A stretch of 63,343 nucleotides of DNA, counting the filler, from Stramenopiles sp. TOSAG23-6 (lineage: Eukaryota): the NCBI GenBank assembly GCA_900128565.1. It is 8 parts of 8 records of this genome, joined end to end, with 100 filler letters (N's around TTAATTAATTAA, not from the genome) between each part and the next. Parts side by side here need not be neighbours in the genome. Positions count along the whole stretch, not along the records: positions 20,246 to 30,244 come from LT636338.1; 7 more parts are not named here. One strand, 5' to 3'. Of this stretch, positions 9,324 through 60,381 are shown piece after piece. Within the stretch, counting starts at the first letter, position 1; every line of letters starts with the position of its first letter. A program made the translations under genes and the position numbers. The notes below the pieces were generated by a model, which was not told the DNA's origin, made no database searches, and saw only the letters and a program-made list of their open reading frames with translations.

Positions 9324-9958
9324 TCATGCTTGTTGACTAAAATAAGAATCTTTAGATTTCCCAGACCTACCTCCTGAAGTTTTTGAACTTGTTTTGTTTG
9401 ATGTATCACTTTGTCCAACTTCTTGCGCATCAGACTTATTTGCATGTTTCTTTTTCCCGTGTTTGTTCTCAGTTTTTTCATTTTTTTTCGTATTTTTTTC
9501 TTCTCCATTTGACAAATTTAAATTATTGATTCCATTGGGCATACACCAACCAAGCATAGCAATGGTATGTAATAATATATGAAGCGCTGTAATAGTAGCA
9601 CCCCAAATAAGAACACTTGCTGCAGTATACTTTTCTTTCTGAGAATCTACACTTTGTCCATTATCTGATTCTATGATCCAAGTACCTATATTGTGAAAAA
9701 ATATTTTTTCATTTTTTTGTTAGGTACAAAATTTCGTACGAAAAATAAATTTGAAATTGAAAAAAAGTTGAACATTAACATACCAAATTCTCTGCTGGAT
9801 AAAGCAAAAGCACAATATATACTGTAACCAAAAAAGAAAAAATCTACAAAAAAAAGAAGGATCCATGTTGTACGATTTGCAAATTTTTCTGGATGATAGA
9901 AATGCAAATAAGTAAAAAATATTAAGTAGACTTGTACAAGAACTGAACAAATCAGTGT
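9324..9958 (-). CDS. 3' part of a multi-pass membrane protein; GT-AG intron 9686-9783
   Basis: Two exons join in frame (REF-G-TWII); hydrophobic segments; 5' end lost at contig edge. Confidence 0.6.
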
Positions 9959-10125: not shown

Positions 10126-10175
10126 CGAAATTTTGTACCTAACAAATTTCGAATTTAATTTTTTTTACAATACAT

Positions 10176-18329: not shown

Positions 18330-19970
18330 TTATCCATCCATAGCACCATGAGTTGATATACTCATATCCAAAGGTTTACCAGTCACTTTTTCAAATAGAT
18401 GTAAAACATCAGTTGAAACATCACCAAAATGAGGTTCAGCAGTATAACTGTTTGAAATGTAACAGTGATCATCAATAGTTGAATCTTTCTGAGAATATGT
18501 TTCTTTAATATCATCGAAACGTTCAACAATATATTTCCGGCCTCTTCTTTCTTGTTGTCCATTGATTAAATCAATACCAATTTGTACCTCAGCACTAGGA
18601 TCATTTGTTTCAACAACAGTTGACACAATGGCTACATAAAATCCTTTACTCGCCACATATTGAGATGCACCAACACAAGTGACATAAACATCATTTGCAC
18701 GTGCAGGGTAGCCTCGTTTTGCCACTTGTGTTTGTGGAATAATAATTTGGCAAGAATCAGCACCATTTGTACCATCAATAGGTGCATTTAAGATGCAAAT
18801 TGCGCGAATTATTTTACCCGTTAATTTTAACTTTTCTTTAGGAAAGTAACAAGGTTCACCAATAATAATAGGTGCTGTGGCAACACCTTTGTCACCTACT
18901 TTAATTCCTTCACAAATACCATCTGAATTAAATAATAAATCAATATTATTTTCACCACCAGCCTGTTTGGTTTCCAAAGATTCACCAAGCATAAATGCAC
19001 CGCCTAAAGATTCACCAAGAACAGCAGAATATCTTGCAAAGTTTTGTGGTAAAGAACTAATGCCATACTCTGGATAAAGATAAGGTGATGAACCATATTG
19101 TAATACGGATGCAGCATATAAACGACAACGTTCAACTAACTCAATTGCAGGTTTGAGTTTGTAATTGTCATTTGAGTAAAGTGCCATAGAATGTCCAACA
19201 AACTCCTGTGTATTTTGATCAAGACCATGTTTTTCATACAACTGAGCTACGGTCATCGAAGGAGGTAATTTTTTATCCTTTCCCGCTTTAGCGACGTCAA
19301 CATCAGTTGTTTGAACTTGCTGTAAAAACATAATCAAAGCTCGCTTCTGTAACATTCCGACTAAAGGAGTCTTCATAGCTTCAGTTTTCGTCGACGGAAC
19401 TTTAAACAAATACGACTTTGGTCCACTACCAAACCAACCACCCGAGGTACCTTCGCCTTTGTACACGTAACTTGCACCAATACTACAGTATGATCCATAT
19501 TTACTAACTCTGTCGACACCAAGAGCGTGGACAAGAAGTTTAACTAAATCACCCTGTGCCATGATGAATTTTGGGCAAAGATCAATTTGGTAGTTAAATG
19601 CACGACCAAATCCACGACCACCTTCGGCTACTGGCTTCTCCCAAATTTTCTTGTACGAGCCTTTTCCACCAAACTTTTCGTAAAATTCATCAAGTGCGAG
19701 CGATGCTCCTTCACCACCATAGAATTTCTCACGATCAACTTGTAAGACACGCTTTTTGTGCTGCGCAAGACAGAGACCGAGGAGACAAGACTGAATTCCC
19801 GTTCCAAGGATAATAGCATCGTATTTACCGCGTGCTTTTGCGTCCTTTCCCATTAAAGATGGATATTCTTGTCCACAGACAGTGACTCTACAATCGTCGC
19901 CTTTTTCCTCATTTAATTTTGCATCGGCATCCTTGCCTTCCGACAGCGATACATCCTTGTTTTCCGACAT
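18330..19970 (-). CDS. GDI: Rab GDP-dissociation inhibitor
   Basis: YDAIILGTG, DREKFYGGE, IDLCPKFIMAQG, SPYLYPEYG motifs; intronless. Confidence 0.95.
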   Translation of the reverse strand: MSENKDVSLSEGKDADAKLNEEKGDDCRVTVCGQEYPSLMGKDAKARGKYDAIILGTGIQSCLLGLCLAQHKKRVLQVDREKFYGGEGASLALDEFYEKFGGKGSYKKIWEKPVAEGGRGFGRAFNYQIDLCPKFIMAQGDLVKLLVHALGVDRVSKYGSYCSIGASYVYKGEGTSGGWFGSGPKSYLFKVPSTKTEAMKTPLVGMLQKRALIMFLQQVQTTDVDVAKAGKDKKLPPSMTVAQLYEKHGLDQNTQEFVGHSMALYSNDNYKLKPAIELVERCRLYAASVLQYGSSPYLYPEYGISSLPQNFARYSAVLGESLGGAFMLGESLETKQAGGENNIDLLFNSDGICEGIKVGDKGVATAPIIIGEPCYFPKEKLKLTGKIIRAICILNAPIDGTNGADSCQIIIPQTQVAKRGYPARANDVYVTCVGASQYVASKGFYVAIVSTVVETNDPSAEVQIGIDLINGQQERRGRKYIVERFDDIKETYSQKDSTIDDHCYISNSYTAEPHFGDVSTDVLHLFEKVTGKPLDMSISTHGAMDG

Positions 19971-20294
19971 TTTACTTACAGGTACGTAAATCGTGAATCG
20001 AAATTTTCAATTTTTTGATGATTTCTTTCAAGAATAATTAATGGTCATAAAACTCATGGCTTACCTAGGCCTAGGGTTAGGGTTTGCGTTCGAAAAAAAA
20101 CCATTAATAATAATACAAATATTTTTTTTGTTTTCAAATTTTTGTNNNNNNNNNNNNNNNNNNNNNNNNNNNNNNNNNNNNNNNNNNNNTTAATTAATTA
20201 ANNNNNNNNNNNNNNNNNNNNNNNNNNNNNNNNNNNNNNNNNNNNACCTAACAAATTTTAGTTTTTTTTTTTTAAATACTTTTTCACAATACAT

Positions 20295-20784
20295 TCTTGT
20301 AATGTCGATTACTGGGCCTTGGGGATTCTCATATATGAAATGTTATTTGGAGAAACACCATTTGCGGATCCTAATAATAATCATTTAAATGTGTATAAGA
20401 ACATCAATCGAGGCCGTTTAACATTTAATACAAAGTTTGGACTTTTTGAAACTCCGGATTTATTGAAATCTTTAATAACCCGTATTGNNNNNNNNNNNNN
20501 NNNNNNNNNNNNNTGTTGTTCAAAGACTTGGTTGCTCGTCAAGAGGAGGATGGGAAATTCGGGAACACAAATGGTTTTCTGAAGGAAAGAATCCTGATGG
20601 AAGCTGCACACCAATTGACTTTGAAAAGTTAGAATCATTGGAAACCCCACCTCCAATTGTACCAAATATTAGCGATGCTTTTGATGTACAGAATTTTGAT
20701 GATTGGGGCGAAGAACCAAAACATTCAAAAAAATATATTAATTCTGGAAAGTGGTATGAAGCAATATGGACTGATGAGTTTTAA
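20295..20784 (+). CDS. Last exon of PKA/PKG-like AGC kinase
   Basis: VDYWALGILIYEMLFGETPF, RLG...EIREHKWF, and AGC tail; preceded by intron end ...CACAATACAT. Confidence 0.85.
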
Positions 20785-21032
20785 TTACAATTGTAGTGTT
20801 GTAACGTTTTAAGTAGAGAGAGAGAGAGAGAGAAAGAGAGAAGAAACTAAAGAGAAAGAGAAAAAAAAGAGTAAATGTGTTTTGAATAAAACATATAAAA
20901 AAGAGTAAATGTGTTTTGAATAAAACATATACATTAAAATTCCCTTTTTTATTTTTGAAGATTATATTTTTGAATTCGAAATTTGTTACGTACAAAAGTT
21001 TGTAACAAAAACATTAATTGGGTACATCAATT

Positions 21033-22594
21033 TTAAATATCTGGCCTTTGGCGATTACAAGCAGCACAGCATAAGAATCTGCCTTTATTTACAAGAGTGC
21101 ATAATGAGCAGACATTGTGAAAAAATATGTCAAATTTTAAATCCGTTAACTACGAAACCTTTACATTAAGTACAAAATTTTCTAGTAAAAAAAATGAAAT
21201 TCATAATGAAAACAAACATGTCCACTCTCCCTCTTTACACGAATCATTTGAGTTATCCAATTCATATTTACTTTGATTATGTTGATTNNNNNNNNNNNNN
21301 NNNNNNNNNNNNNNNNNNNNNNNNNNNNNNNNNTTGATTATTTTTTTCATCACAATTTTTTATTTCTGTATTTTCTACAACTTTTGAATTATTGTCCACT
21401 GGAAAATTATTACAACTGTCTTCGGATATGTCAATCAAAATGTTTTTGTTTGATGTATTATCATTGAAAGGCTCGCATGGATTTTCTATTTCATCAGTTG
21501 AAATATGCATTTTGGAAAAATATTTCAATAAAAAAACACGTTAGGTACAAAATTTCGTACGAAAAAAAAACAAATTGAAAAAAAATAAAACATACATCAA
21601 TCACAGACCTAGCAATCTTTTTAGGTCGCGGATTTCTAGGACAAACTTTTGGAAAATCAGTAAAAAAATGAGAAATTTTACGTTTCCTAGAAACTTTAGA
21701 TTTTTTAGAGATATTATTGTAATAGTTTTTACTACATTGAGGATGTTCTCCGTTCAAAACTTTATGCAATTTTACTGCTTCTGCTTCATCATCATTACTT
21801 GCTGAGATACTCGAAGCTTTACTTCCCTGGGATAATTCAAATGGGCATTTATTTTTATTGATTAGGGAGTTTTCAATGCGAATGAGCATAGAAGAATTAC
21901 TTGAATTTAGCATAGAAGAATTACTTGAATTTAGATTCAATATGCTTGAATTATTTGTTTGGATTATTCTATTGGAATTTTGGACCTCAAACGAAGCATT
22001 CAAATCCATTGCAAATTTTTTATCTCTCTTTTCTTGCTCTCTATTTCTTTCTACATCTTTCGATTGTAACTTTGCAGCAAAATCAGCGTCTTCTTTTTCT
22101 CGAAGTACTTTTTGTATAAATAACTGGGCTTCTTCATCCTGTTCTATCAGTGCCTTGGATTTTTCTTCTTCTCTGAGTCGATCTTCATCGTGTAACTTTT
22201 GCATAGAAGACAAACCTGATAGTAATTCACCATTTGTGTTACTAGATACTGGAACTTTGACAGATTCCTCACCAAAAATAATTAAATCTGAATCAAACTC
22301 ATACTCTTCATCTGTTGGATCAATGATATGCGTTTCAAAAAATTTAGTCATTTCGACTTTTTGTCTTTCGTTAATGAAAGTTCCATTATTTTTGGCCCTA
22401 CGAATCCAACGCATTGTTTTACGACATAGTGGACATACTACCTTTTGACCCTCAGTTTTTTCATAAGTGTTATAACATCCTTCGCACATAGAAACAGAAA
22501 TGGCTCTACAACATTGAAGATTTATCGGTGGATATGCCCACTCAAAACAAGTTTGACACTTCCAACTCTTGGGTAGATTTTTCATAGGGTCCAT
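21033..22594 (-). CDS. RING-finger protein with C-terminal RanBP2-type zinc finger; introns 21505-21595, 21110-21217
   Basis: N-terminal CQTC...CEGC...CPLCR; the spliced C-terminus gives WTCSLCTLVNKGRFLCCAAC. Confidence 0.8.
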
Positions 22595-23055
22595 CAAAAA
22601 ATACTAGAATAAAAAACTACAAAAATAATCAAAGATGAATCATTGTACGACACAAAATGTGTATATCCCAAAAAATATTCAAACAGGGACAACTTATGAA
22701 TGAATTTCACAGCCACCAACAGAGGAGGAGTAAGCAAAGGTTTTCCCCCTTAGATGAGAAGAGAATGCAACTGTGGTACGCTAGGATATTCTCTAACTAT
22801 AGTACTATTATAACAGCATTTATAATCTCAATAAATCATCTATCCCACAATAGCTTGCGTACTGTTGACATGAAGGAGACTCTTTTTTTACTCTCAGTCT
22901 CAATAATTCGTACGAGTTCCGAAATTTATTTTGAGATTGATTGCTGATGTTTTGACTGTGTCGCGCGCTGTCAGGACAAAATTAATTTAGAAGTACTTCG
23001 ACTTGGTCATATTACATATTCTGAGTAGTATTATAGCGTCCAAATAGACAACATC

Positions 23056-24955
23056 ATGTCAAGAAAAAAGAGAGGGAAACGTACCCAAGCTAAGAAAAAG
23101 GCAACTAAAGTGGTCGCTGGTTCAGGCAATGGAGCCAAGTTTAATTTGCGTGAAATATTGGTAGCACTTGGAACAGTTGGTGAGTGTTTGAACCCTTCTC
23201 TTGACAATGAGTGGTCCTTGGATAAATTCTTTTGTACCTTCTACAAAAGTACCTTCTACAAAAGATTCGAGTGATAGAGTGACGCGTTTGAAAGTTCTTC
23301 AGAAATGGCACGAGTCGAAGAGCAACACAGGGTCTACTACTACTGAGCAACCATTTACTTTTAAATCAACAAAAGAGGGATGTGGTATAATAGCTACTCG
23401 CGATATTGAAAAAAATGAGGAAGTTTTGAGAATTCCTCGAGGAGTAATGATGTCCGAGTCTACTGCAAAGAGTGAACATTCGCGTTTGAGTCCGTTACTC
23501 AAAGAAATACCTTTTTTAACAAAAGCTCCAACTCTTCTTCTTGCTCTCCAACTTTTATCAGAATGTTTTGCAGTAGCTAGTAATCCCCCCTCTCCTTGGG
23601 CTGCTTATTGTGCATCTCTTCCACCACCCTCAAGTTTGAATATACCAATTATTTGGGATAGTAGTCGAATTATTTTCGATAGTAGTCAAAATATGAGTGA
23701 CAAGGAAAAGGTTAGACTTGATATCGATTATGCAACATTCAATATGGAATTTCTTCGTGGTACATCTGCATTCTTAGCCGCCTTAAGATCTTGGCGTTCT
23801 GCAGCCCGGCACTACCATTCACTGTATCAATGCCTTGTAAGAAAATCTATCAAGCAAAATCCACTTCCTCTTGAATTATTCACATGGGATGCATTTCGAT
23901 GGGCTATGTCAATTGTCATTACTCGTCAGAACAAAGTCCCAATTCAAAAAGATACAAAACAATTTAAAATATCAACAGAGGATTCAAGTGTCGGATTTAT
24001 CGGCGAGTTAGCTCTGATTCCAATATTTGATATGTGTAATCATGAATGTGGCACTGTGACTACAGATTATGTATGGAACGACTGTCAGCGGGAAGATGAC
24101 AAGAATATTGTGAAACAATGTGAAAAAAACACATTTACAGAGAAATGTATGAAAAAAAAAAAAATGGTTGATACGATAAATGACGGATACCTTGTTTTAT
24201 ATGCAAAACGCTCATTTTCTGCTGGTGAACAAATTAAAATGTCATATGGTCCTCGGTCTAGTTGTGAGTTTTTATTATCGTCTGGCTTCGTGCCATACGA
24301 TAATAAAAACTCATACTGTGGAAGTAAGTATGGTGAGCGTGTTTCCATTACATGGAAGTTAGACGTTTGTTGCGAGTCTAAAGATCCGTTACTACTATTA
24401 AAGCAAAAGTTTTTGGCAAGTTTAGGTTGGATGCAGTCTAATAAGATGACTTTTGAACAAACGAAGCAGACAAACGCATCCACATTAACGTACACATTTG
24501 TAGTGTATCCAAATGATGTTTGTGATAAAGTTCTCATAGATCAAATAGATTGTGGCGCAGCTCGTGAAACTATACAAAAACAAGTAAAACAATCTTCACA
24601 TTTGGAATTATTTCTCAGAGTAGCTTCTGCAGATAAAGTTGGCATTTCAAATTTAATGCGAAATTGTATGAATGTGAAAACAATAGATGATTTATGTTTT
24701 GATGGAGATGATTTTTTGTATTTATGTGATGATATGCCTGCTTTATCAGCACTACGTCGAGGTTGCATTTCGACCCTTGATCAAAAAGAAAAAACCCTAA
24801 CCCTAATGAAACAATTTCCACTTCCCGGGGGCGCATTTCTTATCGGAAGAAAGTCGCCATATAGTGTTGCCATGGCATCACGACTTCAAGAACGTGAAAA
24901 AAGTGTGATACGTTCAATAATTAGTGCAGTGGATGTTTTACTGAACAAAGAATAA
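23056..24955 (+). CDS. SET-domain methyltransferase (SETD3/Rubisco-LSMT family); probable GT-AG intron 23180-23249
   Basis: GIIATRDI, ALIPIFDMCNH, GEQIKMSYG, LLSSGFV; GTGAGT...AAAG removal fuses ORFs 23056 and 23201 in frame. Confidence 0.85.
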
Positions 24956-25098
24956 TATTTTACTATTATTTCACTATTTTAAAAATATTATTTTTTTGTG
25001 TGTTGAAATGCAAAAATTTATTTGGTAGTACTTACTATAAAGATAATACTTTGTACGAAAGACATNTTTTTCTCCTTTAGCAATTTAAATTAAATAGT

Positions 25099-25770: not shown

Positions 25771-26159
25771 TAAATTTTGTTCTTTTAGTTTTTGGTATAT
25801 TTTAAGATACTCCGGCCAAGAAGGCTGGCTTGGCCAATGAATGGCTTGGTCAGCTCATATTTTTTCATTTTTTATTTATTTCGTGTTGTAATACTACATT
25901 AACTTAATTTGAAATTAGGCTATTTTATTCTCTGAAAGGTCCATATTCTTTGGGTTGTTACCTTGTACCTGAATGAACGAATTTTTCTTAAAAGATTTTC
26001 ATTATTATTATTATTATTTCATTTGATTTTTCATTAGCATTTGTATAAAGAATAAAAAAAATCTAAAAAATCCAAAAAATGTTGTTTTTATTGATTGGAT
26101 ACATTGGTCATGTAAATTCCATTCAATAATGGTTTCGCTCAATTCGTAAAAAGTCAACT

Positions 26160-28634
26160 TTACATGCATCGAGATACAATATTAAGCAATGGACGTTCCA
26201 ATAGAAAAAAAGTAATAGCTGAAGCTAGATACGCAAATGTAGAATTTATGAAAGTTCTACCTATTAAATCTATACCATCAAAATGATAATATGAATTTCT
26301 ACTACCTGCAATGACCATCATTACAATTGGATGCCATAAATATGCACCGTACGTAAGTCTAGCAAGTGGTACGAAACAATACAAAGACAAAAAATAACTA
26401 ACAGCACCATTCAAACCTGTTTTTGTACCTTCAAACCAAATGAAGCATAGTATTGCAAGAAGAAATGTCCAAAGCGGACGGCTAAATGTTAAATATACTG
26501 CAGATTCAAAAGTTGTCCAATCACCATCAGTATTATAGTCAGTAATTGGAATTAAGACAATGAATACCATCAGACCTAGGGTTATAGAATGTATCAAAGT
26601 GGTCCAATTTGTACTATCGAGCCAAGAATACGTCGAACTATTTTCTCTCACTCTTTGAGGGTTAGAATTACTTTCTATCCGTCTTTGAGATTGTTCTTTT
26701 TGTTCTTGTTCTTGTCCGAGTTGTTGATATTGTTGTTGTGGTTGTTGTCTCAAAGTTTTTTGTTTTTGTTTTTCATTGTAAAACACTCCAAACAAAACAC
26801 CCACTAGATAAGCAGGAATTCTAATATACGGTTTTCCATATAATAAACTTGAGTATTTTGAAAATTTACCACCAAACATATATATATTAAGGTCCCAATG
26901 TGTTATATAATACATACTAATTGACATGGAAGTTAACATAACTACGGTAATAATAGACATTCCAAGGTTACGTCTTAAATACAATAGAGGCAGCAATATT
27001 GCTGTAATGATAAAGAAGACGAAATCACATCCAAGATACCATACCCATCCCATGTAACATAACAAATATGTCAAATTTAAAATTCATTAAGTAGAAATAC
27101 CTTTGGATTATTAGGTCATGAGGATAGGAAAAAAATGAAATTGAACAATAAAAATATAATCCTTAGGTACAAAATTTTGTATACAAAACAATGATAACGT
27201 ACATACAAATATCACCAAAACGTTTCGGATAAAAATCCATTATGTAGAGTAAATTAGACCACCAGTATTTTTCACATGTATTTTTCACAGAAAATTGATA
27301 TCGTACATATATTGTGAAAAATATTTTTTTTGTAAAAAAACTCGTTAGGTACGAAATTTTGTATTAAAAAAAATAACTTCGAACATTTGGAAAAAAAAAG
27401 GTACATACGAAATTATGTAAAAAACAATTAGGTATTATATAAAAAATTATTGATAAAAACCTACATGAAAAGGACCAGTGCCGATAAATTTAGAAACTTT
27501 CATGTAGAATAACATGACAAATGCTAATGCCGGTGTAAGCCGAAAATACCGATATATTAAAACACGTGGAAGCGACCATTGTCCTTTTTTCTTGGATGAT
27601 ATTTTTTTAAGTGATATATACGTAAAAAGGAATCCAGACATCATAAAAAATGTGTCTACAGCAAACTCAGCACCAAATATAGTTTGCATCCATAATTTGT
27701 TTTTTGCACCATACTTTTCAGCAATTTCATCATCCATGTTGTCATATCCCGATATCATACTTGGTATCATCCATGTATGTCCAAAAACAATCCATATCAT
27801 TGATAGAACGCAGACGCCATTGAGTGAATCAGTCTTTCGTTGCACTGCTACGTATTTTGGAAAAATATTTAAAAAAAAAAAAAAAAATGTTAGGTACAAA
27901 AATTTCGTATGAAAAATAAATTCGAAATTAAAAAAAAATAAAACATACACTTTCATTAGATGGTTCCAATTGACTTGTATATCAAATGCTTCAATACTCC
28001 AGTGCCCAAATATTTTCGTTATACAACTTTTTCTCGGTTGAATAGGTGCATATACCTCATTTGGAAGCAAAGAAACCGTTATCTCAGTAGAGTTACCAAG
28101 AACTACATTTTCATCTTGCAAATCAAAAGTTTTCTGAGGTTGTTTTTTGAGAACTTTTGAATTTAATCCTAGGAAAGCCCGTACAAGGGTCACTAATATG
28201 ACAAATGCTGAGAGGACACCGCAAAATATGATCGAAACCCAACTTTTTACATCAGGCTTCATTTCTTCATCTGCAGATAAAATACTTGTAATATTTACAT
28301 TCTTCTGGGTCACATTGTTATGAGCAAGTACATTATGAACGCCTTCAGTAATTGCTTGAAGGCTACATATTTTTGGTAAACAGACACCTAATTCACACGG
28401 AATTCCAGGTACATTAGGCCACAAAGAAGCTGTAAATCCAACTAATGAGTACTGCATTCCGGCTGAATTGACACACATGGAATACCTGCCAGAGTCCATG
28501 GGCAAGTCCTTGCCTGTTGCAAGCAAGATAGTTCCTTTGCTTTTTTCGATTGCTTTCTCACATTCCGGGGAAACATTAGTCCCCATGCATATGTGGAATA
28601 CGAATAGAAAAACAAATACTCGCATGCATTTCAT
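26160..28634 (-). CDS. NRF-6-like O-acyltransferase (acyltransferase-3); introns 27850-27948, 27307-27464, 27052-27202
   Basis: WIVFGH, AVDTFFMMSGFL, RYFRLTP, CEKYWWSNLLYI, CMGWVWYLGCD, LARLTYGAYLWHP, LLERP. Confidence 0.9.
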
Positions 28635-28934
28635 TTGCCGTGGAAGTTAAAATGTTCTAACAGTATTTAGTGTCGGTAAGTCCAAGCAAGTTGTTGAAGA
28701 AAACTCGCTCGGCACCAGGAAAAAAACATCAACTTTGATGATGTCATTTTTTTTTCTAAACGAAAACGAAAACATCAAAAATCAAATGATCCATCATTTC
28801 TTCGAACTTCGAACTTCGACCCGGGAAAATAAAAGAATACAACCTTTCTCTCTTTTCTGAAATATTCGACAACGTTAGCTGGATACTGGTGGATTCATTG
28901 GGCTTATAGATAAACCGAGTGTTCCATCTTGATA

Positions 28935-30038: not shown

Positions 30039-30397
30039 TCCCAAAGGGTAGGGTTTAAATTTCTGATATTTCTTATTTTTCGGGCATTTTTATTGCGTAG
30101 GGTAAATAATCAATTGAAGAGTTGAAGTGGGAGAATTTTTTATTGTGTATAGAGTAAACAATTTTTTTTGTACGAAATTTTGTACCTAACAAATTTTAAA
30201 AAAAATAATTCTAGAGTGTAAGTGGGAAAAATATATGAGAGATTNNNNNNNNNNNNNNNNNNNNNNNNNNNNNNNNNNNNNNNNNNNNTTAATTAATTAA
30301 NNNNNNNNNNNNNNNNNNNNNNNNNNNNNNNNNNNNNNNNNNNNGTACAAAATTTCGTACGAAAAAAAAATCAAATTTGAAAAAAAATAAAACATAC

Positions 30398-31614
30398 ATT
30401 TCCAACTCCCAAACTTCTTTTTGCATAGCTTCCTTTGAACTCACAACTCGTTGAAGTTCAGCTTTGAGATGAGCTCGATTTTGTTTCATCTGTTCAACAT
30501 CTTTAGCACTTAGTTCTTGTGCATCAACCTCAGCTTGAAGTTGAGCCTGTCGTTCTTGACATTCAATCAATTGTTTCGATTTTGCTTCACAATCTTCTCG
30601 TCGATGAGCCAGCTTTTTCTTCATAGTAACGGCATGATCATCTAACTTCTGAATGAGCATTTGGAACTTTTGTAAATCGTTTGTATAATCAGCTTGTTTT
30701 GCATGAAGAGCAGGTAAAGCAGACCCGGAATTTTCCAAAGTTGTTTTTTCTGCAGTGAGTTCTTGTTGCTTTTCTACGCTATCATCAATCTTCATTTGAA
30801 TTGCTTTATTACGATTTTCTTTATCCAAAATTAAATCTTGGAGAAGAGATTCTTCCATAGCATCGTCACCCGCGAGAAATGCTTTGTACGCTTTGCCCAG
30901 ATACTTAAAAAAGATGCGGGCACTCTTTTGTTCGTAGTCAACTTCAGTTTTATCTGTTTCATTTTCTTCAGCAAGGGAGACGGCATCATCGTATGATAGT
31001 AATTCAACAAGCCATGTCAGAGCAGCCAATAGAGCAGGCCATGTGTGTGGTGTACCAACGGCGCTGAGAGCGGTTTTTGATATAGAAAAAGGATAGCTGA
31101 TACCTTTGAACATTAAAGGAACTTCTTTTGTCATTTCCGTCATGGACCGACCGTTCTGATAATTCACGTCTAGTTTTCTAAATAAGAAATGAACAATATT
31201 GTGAAAATCACGATTAGTTGGTCGAAGAACTTGCTTTTTGTTTACAGGATGTTCATATTGGTGAGTAGCTAAATAAGTAATGAGAATATTCGCACACTCC
31301 TCAGTATACTTTTTATCACCAATGGGGCGACACTCTTTCTTCATTTCTGTGTGCATACTTCCATATAAACTTTGACGACGACCGACACCTAGACTGGATC
31401 TGTAATTACCAACACTTGCACGACGATTCTCGCGTAATCGACCACCACCCCCTCGTCGTGCGGGTGCGAGCGATACACGACCCCCGCCACCTACTCGTGG
31501 AGCCATGGACTGACGAGCCTTTGATCTTCGGATAGGTCGTGAACCACCTCTGTCATTATTCCGAAACTCATTAATTGACATCGCCCCTAGAGTTTGTCGG
31601 CGAGATGCACGCAT
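30398..31614 (-). CDS. NDC80: Kinetochore protein NDC80/HEC1, exon 1 (mirror copy)
   Basis: RPIGDKKY, RPTNRDF, YPFSISKTALSAVGTPHTWPALLAALTWL. Confidence 0.9.
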
Positions 31615-31941
31615 TTTCAATAATGTTGTATTTTCAACACTATACTTAATACACTCTTTAGGAATCAATGTAACACTACTAATTATTCAAAAAAAGAAAA
31701 ACAACACGCAAACAAAGAAGAAGTCCAATATCATGAAAAATGAATTCAAATTTTTGATGTTGCCGAAAAACAGCAGATTTCGTGTAGTAAGAGTCAGCCG
31801 CGATTTCAGATTAGATTGGCATTAGGTTAGGTAGTCTACAAGCTATATAGTAATATATGTATCAACCATTACAGTACGCTAACTACTGTAGCTAAAACGG
31901 ACAGAACTCTTTCAGTAGTTGCTTGCAAACCTTTCCATAAT

Positions 31942-33933
31942 ATGGGGAAATATGGGAAAATGAAGCGTAAGCGCAAGCGTAAGCGAGTAGCTGGAATGAA
32001 CCCTCCAGTATCAGCTGCCTGTACTACTGTTTCCGAAAACTCTAATGATCAAGTAAATATAGATGAGCTTTGTTCTCTTCTTACGTATTTATCGAATAAT
32101 AGTGCCGTAGTAGACTATTATAGTTTACACTTTCGACCACTTCGTCGGTCTCTTCGTCCACTTTTAGAGGAATTGTCGATTGTTTATAACTCTTCAAACG
32201 TCACAAAGAAACAGAGGAAGCATAGACAACAACAACATAATTTGAAGAAAAAACAAAAATACATGGTTGAAGAAACTGACTTTAGTATTGATTTATTGAA
32301 TAGTGAGAAAATATTGAGTCAATCCATTAGAACCATTGATGAAGTTGTGTCTGTTCCGGGACTGATCACGACGAAGCCAATGAAGAAACTTCGTAGCACA
32401 CTTACTTACTTTATGCAAGAATATGATAAAGAGAAATCAAGTAGTATGAGTAATCGTATTTCAGTTGCCTTACGAGATGGTTGCCACCGCGACGCAATTA
32501 CTTTATTATCCAAAATGCGGTCAGAAAAGCATCAGCCAAAGTTATCGTCTGTTCAACGTTGGGTGCGTGATGTCATGAATGAGGATAAATTTGCTAGTTT
32601 AGATAACAAAGATGCTGTTAGTTTACTTTATAATATTTGTTGTTTACAGCCTTTATCGTGGTGGTGGATTGAACAAAAAAATCAAGAAAATCAAAACAGT
32701 CAAGTGATAAAACAGAAGAAACAAGAAAATAAAGAAAATCAAGTGGTACAAAAAAAGTGTCACAAACTAATTGAATGGTTTCCTTCATTTGCCGCGGAAC
32801 CTCGGGGAAAACCAATTCCATCTGATCCGCATGACATTGCCGATATACATGCATTTGAATTGGGTCAACAACGCATTCTTGCATCTACTACTACTACTAC
32901 TACTACTACTAATACTAATACGAGTATGGATATTTCAAAAAAGACTAGTACAGATGTCACATTAAATATATATACTGGAAAATATGGAACACGAGAAAGA
33001 GAAAATCTTTGTGTAATGTCTGCATCACACTACGCAAATGCTTTTAAAGTAGTATATAAAGAAAATGGCGGAGATCGCCGTCCACGAAATCGTTATGCAT
33101 TAACAATCTATCAGTCTATAGAATCCATTATTACATATGATATTGATTTAGATAAGCCGAATTGTAGTAAGCAAATACGTACAGACGTACCAAATGTCCC
33201 AGGAGCATTTGTCATTTCAAATATTCTTTCCTTGAATGAATGCAATCAAATTATTGCTGCTGCTGAAGGATCTCCTGATGGGTATGTACCGGATGAACCT
33301 CTCACTTCAGCACCACCACCACCAGGATATACTCCACGAGCACGTAGTTTTATTTGGCTAACAGATCAATTATCAGAAAAGATGTTTGCTCGATGTCGAA
33401 GATTTTTACCACAGACTGTTGGAGATTCAACACTACCAATGACACAAGGGTTAAATGCAAGATTGCGATTATATAGATATCACCCAGGTGCAATTTATCG
33501 ACCTCACGTTGATGGATCTTGGCCAGGAAGTGGTATAAGAATGATGAATAAAAATGTGGATAATGAGCTAGGAATGAATCCTTCCAATATGTTGTCTGAA
33601 TCATTTTCAAAAACAAATCAAATAGAAAAGTATGAATATGATATTTTCGGAGATAGATGGTCACGTTTTACCTTTTTAGTCTACTTAAATGACGATTTTG
33701 AAGGTGGAACAACCAATTTTTATACACCTAGTCCAAATGAAAATATAATGGAAGGAAGAAGAGTTGAACCACGTGTTGGTTCTGTTTTGATATTTCCTCA
33801 TGGAGGATCTGTTGGTAGTATTGTTCATGAAGGGAGTGCAGTAACTAAAGGAGCAAAATATGTAATTCGTACTGATATTTTATACTTAATTCCAGGACAT
33901 ACACGTAAAGTGTGGGGTGAGAATAATGAGTAA
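31942..33933 (+). CDS. 2OG-Fe(II) oxygenase (prolyl-4-hydroxylase-like)
   Basis: RLRLYRY, PHVDG, TFLVYLNDDFEGGTT, HEGSAVTKGAKYVIRTD. Confidence 0.9.
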   Translation: MGKYGKMKRKRKRKRVAGMNPPVSAACTTVSENSNDQVNIDELCSLLTYLSNNSAVVDYYSLHFRPLRRSLRPLLEELSIVYNSSNVTKKQRKHRQQQHNLKKKQKYMVEETDFSIDLLNSEKILSQSIRTIDEVVSVPGLITTKPMKKLRSTLTYFMQEYDKEKSSSMSNRISVALRDGCHRDAITLLSKMRSEKHQPKLSSVQRWVRDVMNEDKFASLDNKDAVSLLYNICCLQPLSWWWIEQKNQENQNSQVIKQKKQENKENQVVQKKCHKLIEWFPSFAAEPRGKPIPSDPHDIADIHAFELGQQRILASTTTTTTTTNTNTSMDISKKTSTDVTLNIYTGKYGTRERENLCVMSASHYANAFKVVYKENGGDRRPRNRYALTIYQSIESIITYDIDLDKPNCSKQIRTDVPNVPGAFVISNILSLNECNQIIAAAEGSPDGYVPDEPLTSAPPPPGYTPRARSFIWLTDQLSEKMFARCRRFLPQTVGDSTLPMTQGLNARLRLYRYHPGAIYRPHVDGSWPGSGIRMMNKNVDNELGMNPSNMLSESFSKTNQIEKYEYDIFGDRWSRFTFLVYLNDDFEGGTTNFYTPSPNENIMEGRRVEPRVGSVLIFPHGGSVGSIVHEGSAVTKGAKYVIRTDILYLIPGHTRKVWGENNE

Positions 33934-36720: not shown

Positions 36721-38712
36721 TTACTCATTATTCTCACCCCACACTTTACGTGTATGTCCTGGAATTAAGTATAAAATATCAGTACGAATTACATATTTTG
36801 CTCCTTTAGTTACTGCACTCCCTTCATGAACAATACTACCAACAGATCCTCCATGAGGAAATATCAAAACAGAACCAACACGTGGTTCAACTCTTCTTCC
36901 TTCCATTATATTTTCATTTGGACTAGGTGTATAAAAATTGGTTGTTCCACCTTCAAAATCGTCATTTAAGTAGACTAAAAAGGTAAAACGTGACCATCTA
37001 TCTCCGAAAATATCATATTCATACTTTTCTATTTGATTTGTTTTTGAAAATGATTCAGACAACATATTGGAAGGATTCATTCCTAGCTCATTATCCACAT
37101 TTTTATTCATCATTCTTATACCACTTCCTGGCCAAGATCCATCAACGTGAGGTCGATAAATTGCACCTGGGTGATATCTATATAATCGCAATCTTGCATT
37201 TAACCCTTGTGTCATTGGTAGTGTTGAATCTCCAACAGTCTGTGGTAAAAATCTTCGACATCGAGCAAACATCTTTTCTGATAATTGATCTGTTAGCCAA
37301 ATAAAACTACGTGCTCGTGGAGTATATCCTGGTGGTGGTGGTGCTGAAGTGAGAGGTTCATCCGGTACATACCCATCAGGAGATCCTTCAGCAGCAGCAA
37401 TAATTTGATTGCATTCATTCAAGGAAAGAATATTTGAAATGACAAATGCTCCTGGGACATTTGGTACGTCTGTACGTATTTGCTTACTACAATTCGGCTT
37501 ATCTAAATCAATATCATATGTAATAATGGATTCTATAGACTGATAGATTGTTAATGCATAACGATTTCGTGGACGGCGATCTCCGCCATTTTCTTTATAT
37601 ACTACTTTAAAAGCATTTGCGTAGTGTGATGCAGACATTACACAAAGATTTTCTCTTTCTCGTGTTCCATATTTTCCAGTATATATATTTAATGTGACAT
37701 CTGTACTAGTCTTTTTTGAAATATCCATACTCGTATTAGTATTAGTAGTAGTAGTAGTAGTAGTAGTAGATGCAAGAATGCGTTGTTGACCCAATTCAAA
37801 TGCATGTATATCGGCAATGTCATGCGGATCAGATGGAATTGGTTTTCCCCGAGGTTCCGCGGCAAATGAAGGAAACCATTCAATTAGTTTGTGACACTTT
37901 TTTTGTACCACTTGATTTTCTTTATTTTCTTGTTTCTTCTGTTTTATCACTTGACTGTTTTGATTTTCTTGATTTTTTTGTTCAATCCACCACCACGATA
38001 AAGGCTGTAAACAACAAATATTATAAAGTAAACTAACAGCATCTTTGTTATCTAAACTAGCAAATTTATCCTCATTCATGACATCACGCACCCAACGTTG
38101 AACAGACGATAACTTTGGCTGATGCTTTTCTGACCGCATTTTGGATAATAAAGTAATTGCGTCGCGGTGGCAACCATCTCGTAAGGCAACTGAAATACGA
38201 TTACTCATACTACTTGATTTCTCTTTATCATATTCTTGCATAAAGTAAGTAAGTGTGCTACGAAGTTTCTTCATTGGCTTCGTCGTGATCAGTCCCGGAA
38301 CAGACACAACTTCATCAATGGTTCTAATGGATTGACTCAATATTTTCTCACTATTCAATAAATCAATACTAAAGTCAGTTTCTTCAACCATGTATTTTTG
38401 TTTTTTCTTCAAATTATGTTGTTGTTGTCTATGCTTCCTCTGTTTCTTTGTGACGTTTGAAGAGTTATAAACAATCGACAATTCCTCTAAAAGTGGACGA
38501 AGAGACCGACGAAGTGGTCGAAAGTGTAAACTATAATAGTCTACTACGGCACTATTATTCGATAAATACGTAAGAAGAGAACAAAGCTCATCTATATTTA
38601 CTTGATCATTAGAGTTTTCGGAAACAGTAGTACAGGCAGCTGATACTGGAGGGTTCATTCCAGCTACTCGCTTACGCTTGCGCTTACGCTTCATTTTCCC
38701 ATATTTCCCCAT
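36721..38712 (-). CDS. 2OG-Fe(II) oxygenase (mirror copy)
   Basis: Identical translation to 31942-33933. Confidence 0.9.
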   Translation of the reverse strand: MGKYGKMKRKRKRKRVAGMNPPVSAACTTVSENSNDQVNIDELCSLLTYLSNNSAVVDYYSLHFRPLRRSLRPLLEELSIVYNSSNVTKKQRKHRQQQHNLKKKQKYMVEETDFSIDLLNSEKILSQSIRTIDEVVSVPGLITTKPMKKLRSTLTYFMQEYDKEKSSSMSNRISVALRDGCHRDAITLLSKMRSEKHQPKLSSVQRWVRDVMNEDKFASLDNKDAVSLLYNICCLQPLSWWWIEQKNQENQNSQVIKQKKQENKENQVVQKKCHKLIEWFPSFAAEPRGKPIPSDPHDIADIHAFELGQQRILASTTTTTTTTNTNTSMDISKKTSTDVTLNIYTGKYGTRERENLCVMSASHYANAFKVVYKENGGDRRPRNRYALTIYQSIESIITYDIDLDKPNCSKQIRTDVPNVPGAFVISNILSLNECNQIIAAAEGSPDGYVPDEPLTSAPPPPGYTPRARSFIWLTDQLSEKMFARCRRFLPQTVGDSTLPMTQGLNARLRLYRYHPGAIYRPHVDGSWPGSGIRMMNKNVDNELGMNPSNMLSESFSKTNQIEKYEYDIFGDRWSRFTFLVYLNDDFEGGTTNFYTPSPNENIMEGRRVEPRVGSVLIFPHGGSVGSIVHEGSAVTKGAKYVIRTDILYLIPGHTRKVWGENNE

Positions 38713-39039
38713 ATTATGGAAAGGTTTGCAAGCAACTACTGAAAGAGTTCTGTCCGTTTTAGCTACAGTAGTTAGCGTACTGTAATGGTTGATACATATA
38801 TTACTATATAGCTTGTAGACTACCTAACCTAATGCCAATCTAATCTGAAATCGCGGCTGACTCTTACTACACGAAATCTGCTGTTTTTCGGCAACATCAA
38901 AAATTTGAATTCATTTTTCATGATATTGGACTTCTTCTTTGTTTGCGTGTTGTTTTTCTTTTTTTGAATAATTAGTAGTGTTACATTGATTCCTAAAGAG
39001 TGTATTAAGTATAGTGTTGAAAATACAACATTATTGAAA

Positions 39040-40256
39040 ATGCGTGCATCTCGCCGACAAACTCTAGGGGCGATGTCAATTAATGAGTTTCGGAATAATG
39101 ACAGAGGTGGTTCACGACCTATCCGAAGATCAAAGGCTCGTCAGTCCATGGCTCCACGAGTAGGTGGCGGGGGTCGTGTATCGCTCGCACCCGCACGACG
39201 AGGGGGTGGTGGTCGATTACGCGAGAATCGTCGTGCAAGTGTTGGTAATTACAGATCCAGTCTAGGTGTCGGTCGTCGTCAAAGTTTATATGGAAGTATG
39301 CACACAGAAATGAAGAAAGAGTGTCGCCCCATTGGTGATAAAAAGTATACTGAGGAGTGTGCGAATATTCTCATTACTTATTTAGCTACTCACCAATATG
39401 AACATCCTGTAAACAAAAAGCAAGTTCTTCGACCAACTAATCGTGATTTTCACAATATTGTTCATTTCTTATTTAGAAAACTAGACGTGAATTATCAGAA
39501 CGGTCGGTCCATGACGGAAATGACAAAAGAAGTTCCTTTAATGTTCAAAGGTATCAGCTATCCTTTTTCTATATCAAAAACCGCTCTCAGCGCCGTTGGT
39601 ACACCACACACATGGCCTGCTCTATTGGCTGCTCTGACATGGCTTGTTGAATTACTATCATACGATGATGCCGTCTCCCTTGCTGAAGAAAATGAAACAG
39701 ATAAAACTGAAGTTGACTACGAACAAAAGAGTGCCCGCATCTTTTTTAAGTATCTGGGCAAAGCGTACAAAGCATTTCTCGCGGGTGACGATGCTATGGA
39801 AGAATCTCTTCTCCAAGATTTAATTTTGGATAAAGAAAATCGTAATAAAGCAATTCAAATGAAGATTGATGATAGCGTAGAAAAGCAACAAGAACTCACT
39901 GCAGAAAAAACAACTTTGGAAAATTCCGGGTCTGCTTTACCTGCTCTTCATGCAAAACAAGCTGATTATACAAACGATTTACAAAAGTTCCAAATGCTCA
40001 TTCAGAAGTTAGATGATCATGCCGTTACTATGAAGAAAAAGCTGGCTCATCGACGAGAAGATTGTGAAGCAAAATCGAAACAATTGATTGAATGTCAAGA
40101 ACGACAGGCTCAACTTCAAGCTGAGGTTGATGCACAAGAACTAAGTGCTAAAGATGTTGAACAGATGAAACAAAATCGAGCTCATCTCAAAGCTGAACTT
40201 CAACGAGTTGTGAGTTCAAAGGAAGCTATGCAAAAAGAAGTTTGGGAGTTGGAAAT
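39040..40256 (+). CDS. NDC80: NDC80/HEC1 exon 1; intron starts 40257 (AT|GTATG)
   Basis: Same CH-domain motifs as the mirror copy; coiled coil; truncated by contig end. Confidence 0.9.
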
Positions 40257-40409
40257 GTATGTTTTATTTTTTTTCAAATTTGATTTTTTTTTCGTACGAA
40301 ATTTTGTACNNNNNNNNNNNNNNNNNNNNNNNNNNNNNNNNNNNNNNNNNNNNTTAATTAATTAANNNNNNNNNNNNNNNNNNNNNNNNNNNNNNNNNNN
40401 NNNNNNNNN

Positions 40410-52412: not shown

Positions 52413-54332
52413 ATGAAGCACTTATTTACAGGAGTATTCTTTTATTCAAGTATACTGTTTACTTTGAGTACTGTGTATGCAGTTGATAAACAGCAGATTA
52501 CTTGTAGCGCAACTCAACCATGCCCCGAACATCAACGTTGCTACCGTCCAGGATCGACTCAGTCGCTTTGTATTGAAAACAATATGCTAGGTGCATCTGC
52601 TCCACCCACTCTTGGTGCTTCAGTACAGGATGAAACAGTTAAGAAAATATTATCATCCATTTTAGGTGATTTTTTTGATGGTTCAAAGGGTCTGTCTGCA
52701 GAGCAAAAGGAATTACTCTTTTCACAATTTGAAAAGTTGTCAACAAAACAAAGAGAGCAATTCGCCTCTTTTGCTGAAAAATTAGGCGAAGGAAGTGGTA
52801 ATAGGAACCCAGGTGATCCTGTCACATCTGAAGAAAAAGAGAAGTTCACTAAAGCTGGATTTATTGCGCTACAAAATGCATGTATGTTTTCATCTCAATG
52901 TTTTGTCTACATTTTTTTATTTTTTTTGGTTTTTTGGTTTTCATACGAAATTTTGTACCTAACAATTTTTTTTTTTTTTTTTTTTTTTAAAATTTTTTTC
53001 AAAATGTTTTTATACTCCATTCATGAACCATCTTGGACTATCGGAAAAAGATAAAGAGAAACTTTCTTTCATCAATTCTGATCAAATGTCTGCAATTTTA
53101 AACAATCTTCGAGATGCTTTGAACAATGATGGTCAACAATTCGATCCCAAAGATTTGCACGACAAAACGAAACTTACTGCAAAACAACTCAACGGCCTTG
53201 TCAATGTTTTTGGATCATTGAGGGCTGATTGTTCATCTAACGAAGCAAAACAATGCCAAGACGAATTTATGTATTTTTTTTTTTTTTTTTGAATTTATTT
53301 TTTCGTACGAAATTTTGTACCTAACAATTTTTTTTTTTTTTTTTAAAATTATTTTTCCAAAAAACATGAATGGAAAGACTCAGTGTATTTGGACAAAATT
53401 TCAAAAACGAATGAAAAAATGCGTCAAATATGGGAAATGTATCTTTGAAGAATGTCAAAATATCACACAATGTGACTCACCTGATGCTCTGGAGTGTACG
53501 AAAAAATTCGAAAACGAATCTTGTCCAATTTCAAATGTAGTTTTTTTTTTTAATTTTTTTTTTTAAATTTTTTTTCATAGGAAATTTTGTACCTAACAAA
53601 AAAAATTAAAAATTTTTTTTTTGAAATATTTTTCCAAAATATATTTTGATTCTTTTCTTCATCATAATAAGAAATGTATTGTGTATGGCTCATGTCTATT
53701 CGCACGTTGTATCGATATTTCAAGCATTGGTGATGATGATGATACAAAAAGTGATAATAAAAGTTATTGGGAAAAAGAAGAACAACAATCAAATGGGAAA
53801 TCTTTGGGTGTGTTTTCAACAATTCTTGTGGTGATTTCTGTACTGTTTGTGATGGGTATGTTTTACGTTTTTTAAAAAAAAAATTTTTAATTTTTTTTAC
53901 ATTTTTTTTTACATTTTTTTAAAATTTTTTTTTAAAATTTTTTTTTGAATTTTTAAAAAAATTGTAAATATTTTTCAATGATTCCAATGATTTCAATCAT
54001 TGGTGTACCAGATCCAAAGATAAAACTAATACTCTATAGTATATACACATACTACATTCACTCTGTTACTTTTGTATTGAAATTTCGTACCTAACAAAAA
54101 CATCAGTTTACTTTTGTATTGAAATTTCGTACCTAACAAAAACATCAGTTTAAAAATAAAAATAAAAATATTCTTATACAAGAACAGGTGTAATTGGATA
54201 TTTAGGATTTCGTGTTTGTGTGAAGAAAAATAATGTTTCAAATGACAACTCTGTAATGTCAAATGGATCGAGATCGGACAATCGACGAACGTTTCGTACT
54301 TTTTTCTTAATGAATTTTTCACTTTTTTTTTC

Positions 54333-57841: not shown

Positions 57842-60381
57842 CTACAATTTTTCTAGCAAATTACAATGTTTCAACTTCGAAGCTAAAAAGGAAGCAGTAA
57901 CACCGTTATTATTCTTAATATTTGATTCAGCGCCAGCTTCAAGTAATAAATGAATTGTTTCTATTCCTTCCTTATAATTACTTTTATACCATTTTTCTTT
58001 ACCTAAAGCCAAATGATTACTTTTATACCATTTTTCTGTACCTAAAGCCAAATGTAGCGCAGAATTACCTGCAGAATCTGTTGCATCAATCAAATCTCGG
58101 GATTTCATGTTTTGTGAAAAGGTTTTTTTTTTTTCAATTTAAANNNNNNNNNNNNNNNNNNNNNNNNNNNNNNNNNNNNNNNNNNNNNNNNNNNNNNNNN
58201 NNNNNNAAAAAAAGAAATACAAATCTAAAATACAAAATTTCATACAAAATTTCATAGTTAAGAACAAAAAAATATAATACTGGAGACGTACTTGTCCTTT
58301 AGAATGACTTTCAAAGCATCGGTATGATGCAACGATGCAGAAATCATCATTGGGGACCTTTTTTTATTATTACCAATTGTAAGATCTGCACCTGCAAGGG
58401 TAGGAAAATATTTCAAAAAATGTTTTTTTTTTATATTAGGTACAAAATTTACTATAAAAAAAAACATAAAGACACAAATGATGAAAACGTACCTGCATCA
58501 AGTAGTAATTTGATGATCANNNNNNNNNNNNNNNNNNNNNNNNNNNNNNNNNNNNNNNNNNNNNNNNNNNNNNNNNNNNNNNNNNNNNNNNNNNNTGGTT
58601 TGAGTTTTTTTTATGTCAAATTGTTTTTTTTTTCATAGTACATTTTGTACCTAATATGAAAAAAACAAGAAAAACAAGAAAATTAAAACAATATAAATAT
58701 GTACACAAAACGTTTTACAACGTAAAAATTAAATGATGAAAAATATATAATAAAATGAATGATGAAACTAACCTGTTTGTCTCTTGAATTGAGATGTATT
58801 CCATGACGTATGAGTATGTTTAAACATTTTGTACGGTTTAGTTGAGCAGCAATCATAGCTGCGGAAGTTGCTGTCCAATTTATATGGTTNNNNNNNNNNN
58901 NNNNNNNNNNNNNNNNNNNNNNNNNNNNNNNNNNNNNNNNNNNNNNNNNNNNNNNNNNNNNNNNNNNNNNNNNNNNNNNTTCATTTTGATGGTCATTTTG
59001 ATGTTCATTTCCCATTTCTATTTTGTTTTTGATATTTTTAGAGGTATCTGTTGCTAACGTTTTGTTCAAAAATCGTTTGCACAACATTTGAGTAATTCTA
59101 GGGAAATTATTTTGTACTGATATATATAATGGGGAACAACCGTGTATTTTTTCACTCGCGATATCTATGGATGCGCCTCTAGATAAAAGCAATTGGACGC
59201 ATTGCTCATGTCCATTTGTGCACGCTTTATACAGTGGCGTTTCATTGAACTTATCACAAATATCAATATTTATATTTGGTTCTGGTATGAAATTTTGTAT
59301 GAAAAAAAAAAAAAAAGTTGAAATGAAAAATGATACCTTACGGCATTATCGTACTCGCTCCTTTAGCGGCAAGAACATGAAGTGATGTCATTTGTGTAGA
59401 ATCTTCTCTTGCATTCACATCGACTTTATAATTAAGTAAAAGCTGAACGACACGATAATAATCTGGTTTTGTATTTGTTGTAGATTTTGATGTTTTCATA
59501 GAGAGAGCTGTTGTTGAAGTAATGGCGATTGGATTTATGTTTTTTTCAATTTGACTTTGATCACTCAAGTGATAATTATTCTTTGAATCATTGTGTATAG
59601 AGTCGACTAATGTATCGCTGCAGTATCCTTCACATGCGGCATATAGTGGAGTTTGACCATTGTATGACGTTATATCTGCCTTGGCGCGTGTCTTTAACAT
59701 TCGTGTAACGTGTAACAGGCGTTGAATTTCAGGATTAGCTTGTAGTTCATATTTTGGGTGTTTCAAACACCAGCCATTTTCAAATAAATCTCTCTCAACG
59801 TCATTCTTCACAGTTTTAGCTTCCTGATCCGTCAGTTGCGCCAGTGAACTATTCAAATTTTTCAAAATCAATTCAACACCGATATAACACCCGGAAGCTG
59901 AAGCTAGCCACAGTGGTGTTTGACCACTTGCATTTCTACTCTCTACATTGACGTATACTCCTAACAAAGAGCGAATAATATGTGCATTTCCTTTATATGC
60001 AGCAGCATGCAAACAAGACCAACCCACATTATTCAATCTATGTGGATCAGCACCTTCTCCAATGAGAAACTGTACAGCTTCGTCAGCATTATTACGACAA
60101 GCAATATATAAAGCTGTGCTACCATCTTTTGGTCTATAATCATCTATATCTACGTTTCTGTACAGTAACTCCTGAAGTATATCAACACAATTCGCACCCG
60201 CTGCATCCATCAATGGTGTATTCCCCAACTTATCACATACTTGATATGAAGCACCAGCATTTAATAAAAGACAGAAAGCGGTATAATTAGCTGTAGAGCA
60301 TGAGTCCAATAAAGCACTCCGGAAAAATGATGGTTCGGTATAATTGATAAAATGTCTTTTCATTTCTTCTCTACGACTCAT
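57842..60381 (-). CDS. Multi-exon ankyrin-repeat protein (gapped); introns include 58392-58492 (GT-AG) and 58107-58291 (GT-AT, spans a gap)
   Basis: Many GxTPL/ALH ankyrin motifs over several ORFs; junction near 59270-59340 unresolved. Confidence 0.8.

Follow-up and report, generated by a model that had tools for sequence, protein, structure and literature searches.

A probable repeat-family intron with a putative GT-CT register inside a zinc finger codon of Stramenopiles sp. TOSAG23-6

Introduction

Where does an intron end when none of the AGs at hand can end it? The question is posed by a locus on the minus strand of the Stramenopiles sp. TOSAG23-6 assembly (GCA_900128565.1), in which the first Cys codon of a zinc finger (T/GC) is split by an insert of 108 nt. 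The 3' AG is among the most constant signals of eukaryotic genes, and structures and genetics have shown that the A at position -2 contacts the branch adenosine and the G at -1 the first base of the intron. A first-pass annotation had read the insert as a GT-CT intron and concluded that even the A at -2 is dispensable, with position or a match of the last nucleotide defining the acceptor. Here we examine this reading over the whole stretch of DNA that was analysed (63,343 nt, filler included; hereafter the window, along which all positions are counted), setting the insert beside its host gene, a family of similar introns, RNA-library contigs and known systems.

The Interrupted Finger and Its Host Gene

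On the minus strand the locus reads ...GAG TGG ACA T/GTTTGTTTTCATTATGAATTTC...TTGTACTTAA...TCGTAG...TTTTTTCACAATGTCT/GC TCA TTA TGC..., with slashes at the proposed limits (table 1). The insert that had been claimed is there: positions 21217..21110 comprise exactly 108 nt, beginning with GTTTGT and ending with GTCT. Their deletion rebuilds the finger as proposed, W-x-C-x2-C-x3-N-x6-C-x2-C, the spliced product being W-T-C-S-L-C-T-L-V-N-x6-C-x2-C followed by N-R-Q-R-P-D-I (seven codons) and a stop. Read-through likewise meets the TGA that had been predicted, the upstream frame running W-T-C-L-F-S-L before it. The finger frame opens at the upstream TAG (21152-21150) and reaches its first Cys with no in-frame ATG on the way, so the upstream exon is required for its translation.

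Table 1. Features of the interrupted gene and of its 108-nt insert (positions in the window).
Feature	Position	Strand	Description
Exon 1	21596..22594	-	ORF of 333 codons, counted from its first ATG; close to the N-terminus, a weakly RING-like cluster of Cys
Intron 1	21505..21595	-	Typical family copy, 91 nt, GTATGT...TTGTACCTAAC...CCAAAATGCAT; frame open across the junction
Exon 2	21218..21504	-	Ends ...K-E-G-E-W-T plus first base of the Cys codon; assembly gap (N) at 21288-21333
Insert, probable intron	21110..21217	-	Phase 1, diverged family copy, 108 nt, GTTTGT...GTCT
TGA ending the upstream frame on read-through	21201..21203	-	From sequence and ORF reading
Family box TTGTACTTAA of the insert	21166..21175	-	Branch-site-like; first base 58 nt before the last base of the insert; TTGTACCTAA in sisters
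TAG, last AG within the insert	21150..21152	-	AG 16 nt past the box
3' terminal box TATTTTTTCACAATGTCT of the insert	21110..21127	-	Homologous to TATTTTTTCACAATACAT and TATTTTTCCAAAATACAT of sisters
Exon 3	21033..21109	-	Completes the Cys codon (two bases) and the RanBP2/NZF-type finger; stop TAA at 21035-21033
Third family-like box, TTGTACGTAA	20986..20995 (copy 20940-21030)	-	Copy reads AT/GTACCC...TTGTACGTAAC...

Fingers of the RanBP2/NZF type follow, in PROSITE-type notation, W-x-C-x(2,4)-C-x3-N-x6-C-x2-C. At this locus the full pattern is matched only once the insert is removed, while the core without the Trp already lies in exon 3. That core, C-x2-C-x3-N-x6-C-x2-C, occurs a single time in the six frames of the 63 kb window, at exon 3, and in 0 of 200 shuffled sequences. 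When the 38-residue downstream ORF was compared with the PDB by phmmer, the best seven of ten matches were the fingers of Nup153, RanBP2, RNF31/HOIP (NZF) and Vps36 (NZF), all of them weak (E 0.2-2.5), and PF00641 is carried by the named ESM Atlas clusters that lie closest to it (score 0.91, 186 shared features). Exon 3 alone gave no match to Pfam PF00641, even at E up to 10.

The upstream part of the gene is less easily named. Exon 1 resembles Pfam PF13920 at E 0.032, under the family cut-off, and is covered by near-identical RNA-library contigs from three studies (21625-21785, 21924-22168, 22054-22201, 22258-22408 and 21957-22187). The 1214 candidates compared with exon 1 included no homologue, and 141 matches to its pattern in metagenome contigs included no related locus; hence no orthologue showing a C-terminal finger was found. 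Exon 2 is represented by P0001, a 95-residue protein of an independent public assembly, in which it forms one ORF across the assembly gap; identity is 56/62 in the first part, the alleles differing by one 4-residue indel and two substitutions in these 62 aligned positions, and 100% over the last 28 residues, C-L-F-S-L included. As P0001 ends in the identical read-through C-L-F-S-L, its gene call stopped inside the intron; the first 16 nt of the insert are kept at the protein level in this independent allele. Searches with the end of exon 2 returned no matches for queries of 28-91 residues and, for those of at least 92, only this unspliced gene call. Downstream, only 7 nt separate the finger gene's stop codon from the start of a third family-like copy, which therefore probably lies in the 3' UTR of that gene, as a UTR intron or a dead copy.

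A Family of Repeat Introns, Most of Them without a 3' AG

The insert has many relatives. Where 1.02 occurrences of the box TTGTACNTAA would be expected, the window has 28, and their flanks reveal a common layout: (AT)GTATGTTTT...TTTTCGTACGAAATTTTGTACCTAAC...T-run...GAAATATTTTTCCAAAATACAT, or ...TTTTCACAATACAT, at the 3' end. Nineteen copies were curated at both ends; the terminal motif was itself used to place the sister ends, so that independent support comes only from the checks of frame and paralogue. Of these copies 15 end in AT, the others in AG (two, 58492..58392 and 9783..9686), GT (one, 27948..27850) and CT (the finger insert). The reading frame is open across all 19 junctions and across 7-10 of them once the end is shifted by 1 or 2 nt, a lenient control with flanks of 20 codons. 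Moreover, in a repeat-protein gene at 41.5-46.2 kb, four sister junctions (42486-42586, 42763-42859, 43580-43733 and 44295-44387) match, residue for residue, an intron-free paralogous repeat of the last exon, as in F-H-E-E-N/P-G-V-V-V-D-E versus F-H-Q-E-Y-P-G-I-I-V-D-E, or H-L-I-N/G-Y-Q-I-R versus H-V-M-N-G-Y-E-I-K.

In 15/19 copies the two bases that precede the intron equal its last two (AT/AT in 13, AG/AG in one, GT/GT in one). In the two non-AT pairs flank and intron end co-vary, as a 2-nt target-site duplication would have it; on that view the last two bases would derive from the target and not from the element. Between box and end there are 2-17 AT dinucleotides per copy; five copies, namely the finger insert and sisters 42811, 44342, 51432 and 27172, also hold one or two AGs in this interval, all of them skipped (two in the insert, if it ends at 21110). 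Neither the first AG nor an AT by itself can therefore mark the site, which leaves the extended terminal box and the poly-U tract as the most evident candidates.

Within this family the insert is a diverged but recognizable copy. Its 5' end follows GTWNGT after AT (AT/GTTTGT at 21219-21212), with T at +3 where sisters have A; its internal box, in sisters (A)AATTTTGTACCTAAY, is AAAATTTTGTACTTAAT, with one change in the 10-nt core (TTGTACTTAAT in place of the sisters' TTGTACCTAAC). The 18-nt terminal box is present, the cut falling 4 nt after CAMAAT, the frame stays open and the finger is restored. What sets the insert apart is its last dinucleotide: preceded by AT, it ends in CT and so departs from the family habit of ending in AT that repeats the two preceding bases. 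It is the only one of the 19 curated copies with C at -2, and its ends (GTTTGT, GTCT) are the most degenerate of all. A CT ending would be new for this family of GT..AT introns.

Some sisters are themselves instructive. The copy at 27948..27850 (minus strand), within an otherwise intact acyltransferase-like gene, ends in ACGT and is preceded by GT; the frame demands a cut after CGT, the AG 2 nt further being out of frame. Its 99 nt are themselves an ORF, so that read-through there is undetectable by a stop. For the copy at 52882..53005 (plus strand), a cut at the end predicted from the box would break the frame, which is kept by cuts at -4 nt (AT), -1 nt (TT) or +2 nt (TT) from there. On the same strand, the sister at 42126-42219 starts with ATATGT, not GTATGT; a paralogue comparison (H-P-G-L/V-E-R versus H-P-G-I-I-D-R) favours AT..AT excision, and the first G may thus be dispensable too. 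An internal tandem duplication of the box region was seen at 43580-43733 (plus) and 51284-51470 (minus), with boxes 54 and 93 nt apart and total lengths of 154 and 187 nt, the CAT end being retained in both. A long gene at 41494-46223 (plus) encodes a protein of repeated units in which introns 42763-42859 and 44295-44387 occupy the same position of the unit (F-H-E-x-x/P-G); the last exon contains a third unit that is uninterrupted at that position, and either the unit was duplicated with its intron or the intron was lost.

The 64 loci found in metagenome contigs with the family box GAAATTTTGTACCTAAC included no family copy, and a 27-nt stretch across the donor of the insert had no match in genome_contigs or viral_contigs. 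Rfam and ARAGORN found nothing in the window itself.

Which Junction Restores the Finger

We tested exhaustively all donor/acceptor pairs around the insert for recovery of the full finger pattern. Forty-two pairs rebuild it, by removal of 102 nt (16 pairs), 105 nt (12) or 108 nt (14). Not one of the 42 ends in AG, the combinations GT-AG, GC-AG and AT-AC are all absent, and the GT that aligns with the sisters' GT is the start of a single pair, 21217..21110. The insert accordingly does not fit a canonical U2-type GT-AG intron, no AG end restoring the finger and the GT..AG alternative 21217..21150 (68 nt) giving W-T-F-N-G-F-K-I and a stop after eight codons, with no finger.

The end was also placed without recourse to the finger. 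For this we built a leave-one-out position matrix on the final 18 nt of the other 18 copies and ran it from position +30 of the intron to 60 nt into the exon. For the insert it ranks 21110 first (15.1 bits, runner-up 1.7); for intron 1, which has AT immediately before it and AT as its last two bases, the expected end also ranks first (22.2). Family alignment and protein logic hence predict the same base, 21110. The first-pass statement that CT sits where CAT sits in sister introns is borne out, the end lying 4 nt past CACAAT in all six copies of the CACAAT subfamily, which finish in ACAT, ATAT, ATAT, ATAG, GCAT (a partial copy at 10016) and, in the insert, GTCT.

The register is a separate matter. 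The mRNA is unchanged by a slide of one base, to TG..TC (21218..21111) or TT..TG (21216..21109), and a slide of -2 (AT..GT) turns ACA into ACC, both Thr, leaving the protein identical. Because the cut can slide, GT-CT is the register suggested by the family GT start and is unproven by DNA. An end at the internal ACAT (21130-21127) was rejected: it removes 91 nt, out of frame, and aligns with the internal GAAAT of sisters rather than with their ends. U12-type introns have the 5' consensus RTATCCTT and a branch site, TCCTTAAC, 10-15 nt from the 3' end. This class was also discarded, given that the insert starts with GTTTGTTT and its TAA-containing box starts as far as 58 nt from the last base (the distance between box and end is 34-140 nt in sisters).

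RNA-Library Contigs

Assembled contigs from 4 of 7 listed RNA runs were compared with the locus. The junction check called for by the first-pass annotation gave no contig joining 21218 to 21109, and a missing bridge is uninformative either way; none was seen at 21596/21504 (intron 1) either. The eight joints that the comparison listed have short sides (20-36 letters) and represent chimeras between family copies. Summed contig depth was about 3 on exons but, over the family sequence of intron 1 (21248-21581), reached 4689 in one bin of X1 and 34 for X6, and many contigs carry family sequence beside the exons of other genes, their similarity stopping at 21504/21505. The high depth shows that family sequence is abundant in these libraries and does not indicate the cause.

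A Possible Mechanism and Its Rivals

We consider it probable, if well short of assured, that the 108 nt are a real intron of this family, cut at 21217..21110 or at an equivalent register. Most introns of this genome would consist of one short, formerly mobile element, composed of a yeast-like GTWNGT start, the internal TTTTGTACYTAAY box, a T-run and the 18-nt terminal box, and the insert would be a spliceosomal intron derived from it. The element would be flanked by a 2-nt direct repeat, usually AT, whose 3' copy provides the last two bases of the intron, and a cut from the family GT to 4 nt past CACAAT would remove the element plus one repeat copy, restoring the finger. In this gene, putatively encoding a RING-like protein with a C-terminal RanBP2/NZF-type finger, the copy would have come to lie in the first Cys codon, its 3' repeat reading CT instead of AT. 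The 3' cut would be placed by poly-U, terminal-box context and a final U, rather than by AG, the A at -2 being not strictly needed; the final U may contact the first G of the intron, as proposed for yeast HAU sites. A more radical form, in which the spliceosome measures the cut from the terminal box, two bases past the end of the element whatever those bases are (AT, GT, CT and AG are seen), is conceivable yet doubtful. If true, any insertion would be removed exactly from the RNA and the pre-insertion message restored, no AG being brought or found, and the rule for the last two intron bases would be largely sequence-independent.

The first-pass claims on recognition fare unevenly against these data. 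That the A at -2 may be dispensable agrees with position, with reading frame and with one sister (27948..27850, GT..GT). That position defines the acceptor is in line with the coincidence of matrix end and finger junction, though not as an absolute rule, the end predicted for copy 52882..53005 being out of frame. A match of the last nucleotide is suggested by T at -1 in 17/19 copies (G in 2/19), a correlation within a family of common descent.

The insert could also be an intron that has ceased to work, its acceptor lost by an A-to-C change at -2 together with other changes at the ends, and either retained or spliced from GT to the TAG, with the finger exon a recently orphaned relic. Decay of this kind would yield the degenerate ends observed, a GT..AG pair is available, exon 2 evolves fast between alleles (the 4-residue indel and two substitutions in 62), and the contigs of the four runs do not cross the junction. 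Nonetheless, we judge such a loss unlikely: the finger is intact (four Cys, Asn and spacing) with a stop seven codons past the last Cys, its motif is unique in the window, the four sisters named above skip AGs after the box in the same way, and the sister that also lacks A at -2 resides in an otherwise intact acyltransferase gene. Less likely still is an error of base calling or assembly, with a true end in AT as in sisters and the CT an artefact of an assembly of the low-coverage, amplified single-cell type. The C at 21111 (-2) is a single unverified base in a draft contig; Ns number 1431 in the draft contigs of the window, some of them single bases, and one gap lies 70 nt away from the intron; and one contig looks like the inverted duplications that amplification chimeras produce. 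Yet turning GTCT into the sisters' GCAT or ACAT takes two or three changes, not one, and the RNA-contig comparison reported no differing letter here, a weak point given that local cover was not stated.

Another non-AG junction is the least probable of these alternatives, and a very improbable one. It might be a removal of 102 nt through the octamer TCATTATG, which is repeated in the insert (21209-21202) and in exon 3 (21107-21100) and would give W-x-C-x4-C, a removal of 105 nt, or the AT..GT register 2 bases upstream; the number of pairs that rebuild the pattern at the three lengths leaves room for it. These pairs start at non-GT bases, however, save three at a weaker GTTTTC (21213), the octamer within the insert is part of the family 5' region (TCATCATG in sisters), and the matrix offers no second site.

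Comparison with Known Systems

Full-text searches of the literature for introners with GT-AT ends, or for GT-AT/GU-AU introns, returned isolated mentions and no description of such a family. Canonical splicing motifs are reported for the introners of Micromonas pusilla and Aureococcus anophagefferens (PMC7789003). The present family resembles them in its many near-identical short introns in unrelated genes, in the direct repeats that border them and their short inverted ends, and in the splicing out of the element plus one repeat copy, as proposed here; it differs in that 17/19 copies have no 3' AG (PMC7789003). The same paper attributes to the introners of Amoebophrya A25 and A120 inverted repeats of 8-20 nt that form a hairpin, direct repeats of 3-5 nt and no fixed end dinucleotides (PMC7789003). 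Like these, the family occurs in a marine protist as repeated introns without GT-AG ends, its direct repeats overlapping the boundaries; unlike them, it has a constant GT start and a 2-nt direct repeat (PMC7789003). A hairpin of the Amoebophrya type, with paired ends, was considered and rejected: end-to-end duplexes range from -0.3 to -4.4 kcal/mol and are no better than shuffles in 18/18 copies (0.03 level), and the best duplex of the finger insert, -1.5 kcal/mol, is equalled by 15.5% of shuffled 3' ends. With end pairing weak and at the level of the shuffled control, such a hairpin is unsupported.

Two further systems bear on recognition. In Fritillaria borealis, 95% of introns are reported to escape GT/AG at both ends with a U2-type spliceosome, and the unusual 3' ends are proposed to be read by U2AF subunits that have been duplicated and have diverged (PMC13326754). 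The mass occurrence of non-AG 3' ends is shared, and the U2AF model offers a way in which the terminal box could be recognized; the 5' GT, by contrast, is kept in the present family. The closest mechanistic parallel is Saccharomyces cerevisiae without Prp18, which uses HAU (CAU, UAU) and BG 3' sites, helped by poly-U, with a contact proposed at HAU sites between the last and first intron bases (PMC10711555). The sisters' ACAT and ATAT ends after a T-run resemble these CAU and UAU sites, and 15/19 copies end in A-U after C, T or A; unlike the yeast sites, which are minor, error-type and used in a mutant, they would be normal sites here (PMC10711555). The finger insert ends in U-C-U and so falls outside HAU, its poly-U tract being present.

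A genome with normal introns ending in AT already strains the picture of contacts made by AG. A working CT copy, if true, would mean that the contact at -2 can be given up, and would point to recognition through poly-U and the terminal box. The matter also bears on how inserted mobile DNA is converted into a harmless intron and, in practice, on annotation: gene finders that insist on AG would truncate or mis-join most genes of such organisms, and P0001 does stop inside the intron.

Observations on the Assembly

Separate contigs are strung together in the window by identical linkers (44 N, TTAATTAATTAA, 44 N). These lie at 10026-10125, 20146-20245, 30245-30344, 40310-40409, 50372-50471, 60404-60503 and 61874-61973, and join pieces of 10020, 9999, 9965, 9962 and 9932 nt, in falling order; the contig of the finger insert spans 20246-30244. 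Family copies abut the linkers at contig ends (10007-10016, minus; 10133-10142, plus; 30180-30189, plus), so the assembly seems to break at the repeat. The contig at 30345-40309 contains mirror pairs of ORFs around an N run (34562-34830), with 465 residues each at 30289..31686 (minus) and 38968..40365 (plus) and 700 residues each at 31831..33933 (plus) and 36721..38823 (minus), and looks like an inverted duplication as from amplification chimeras. On the contig neighbouring that of the finger gene, positions 18330-20006 (minus strand) hold an intron-free ORF of 558 codons, which, by eye from its translation, looks like a Rab GDP-dissociation inhibitor.
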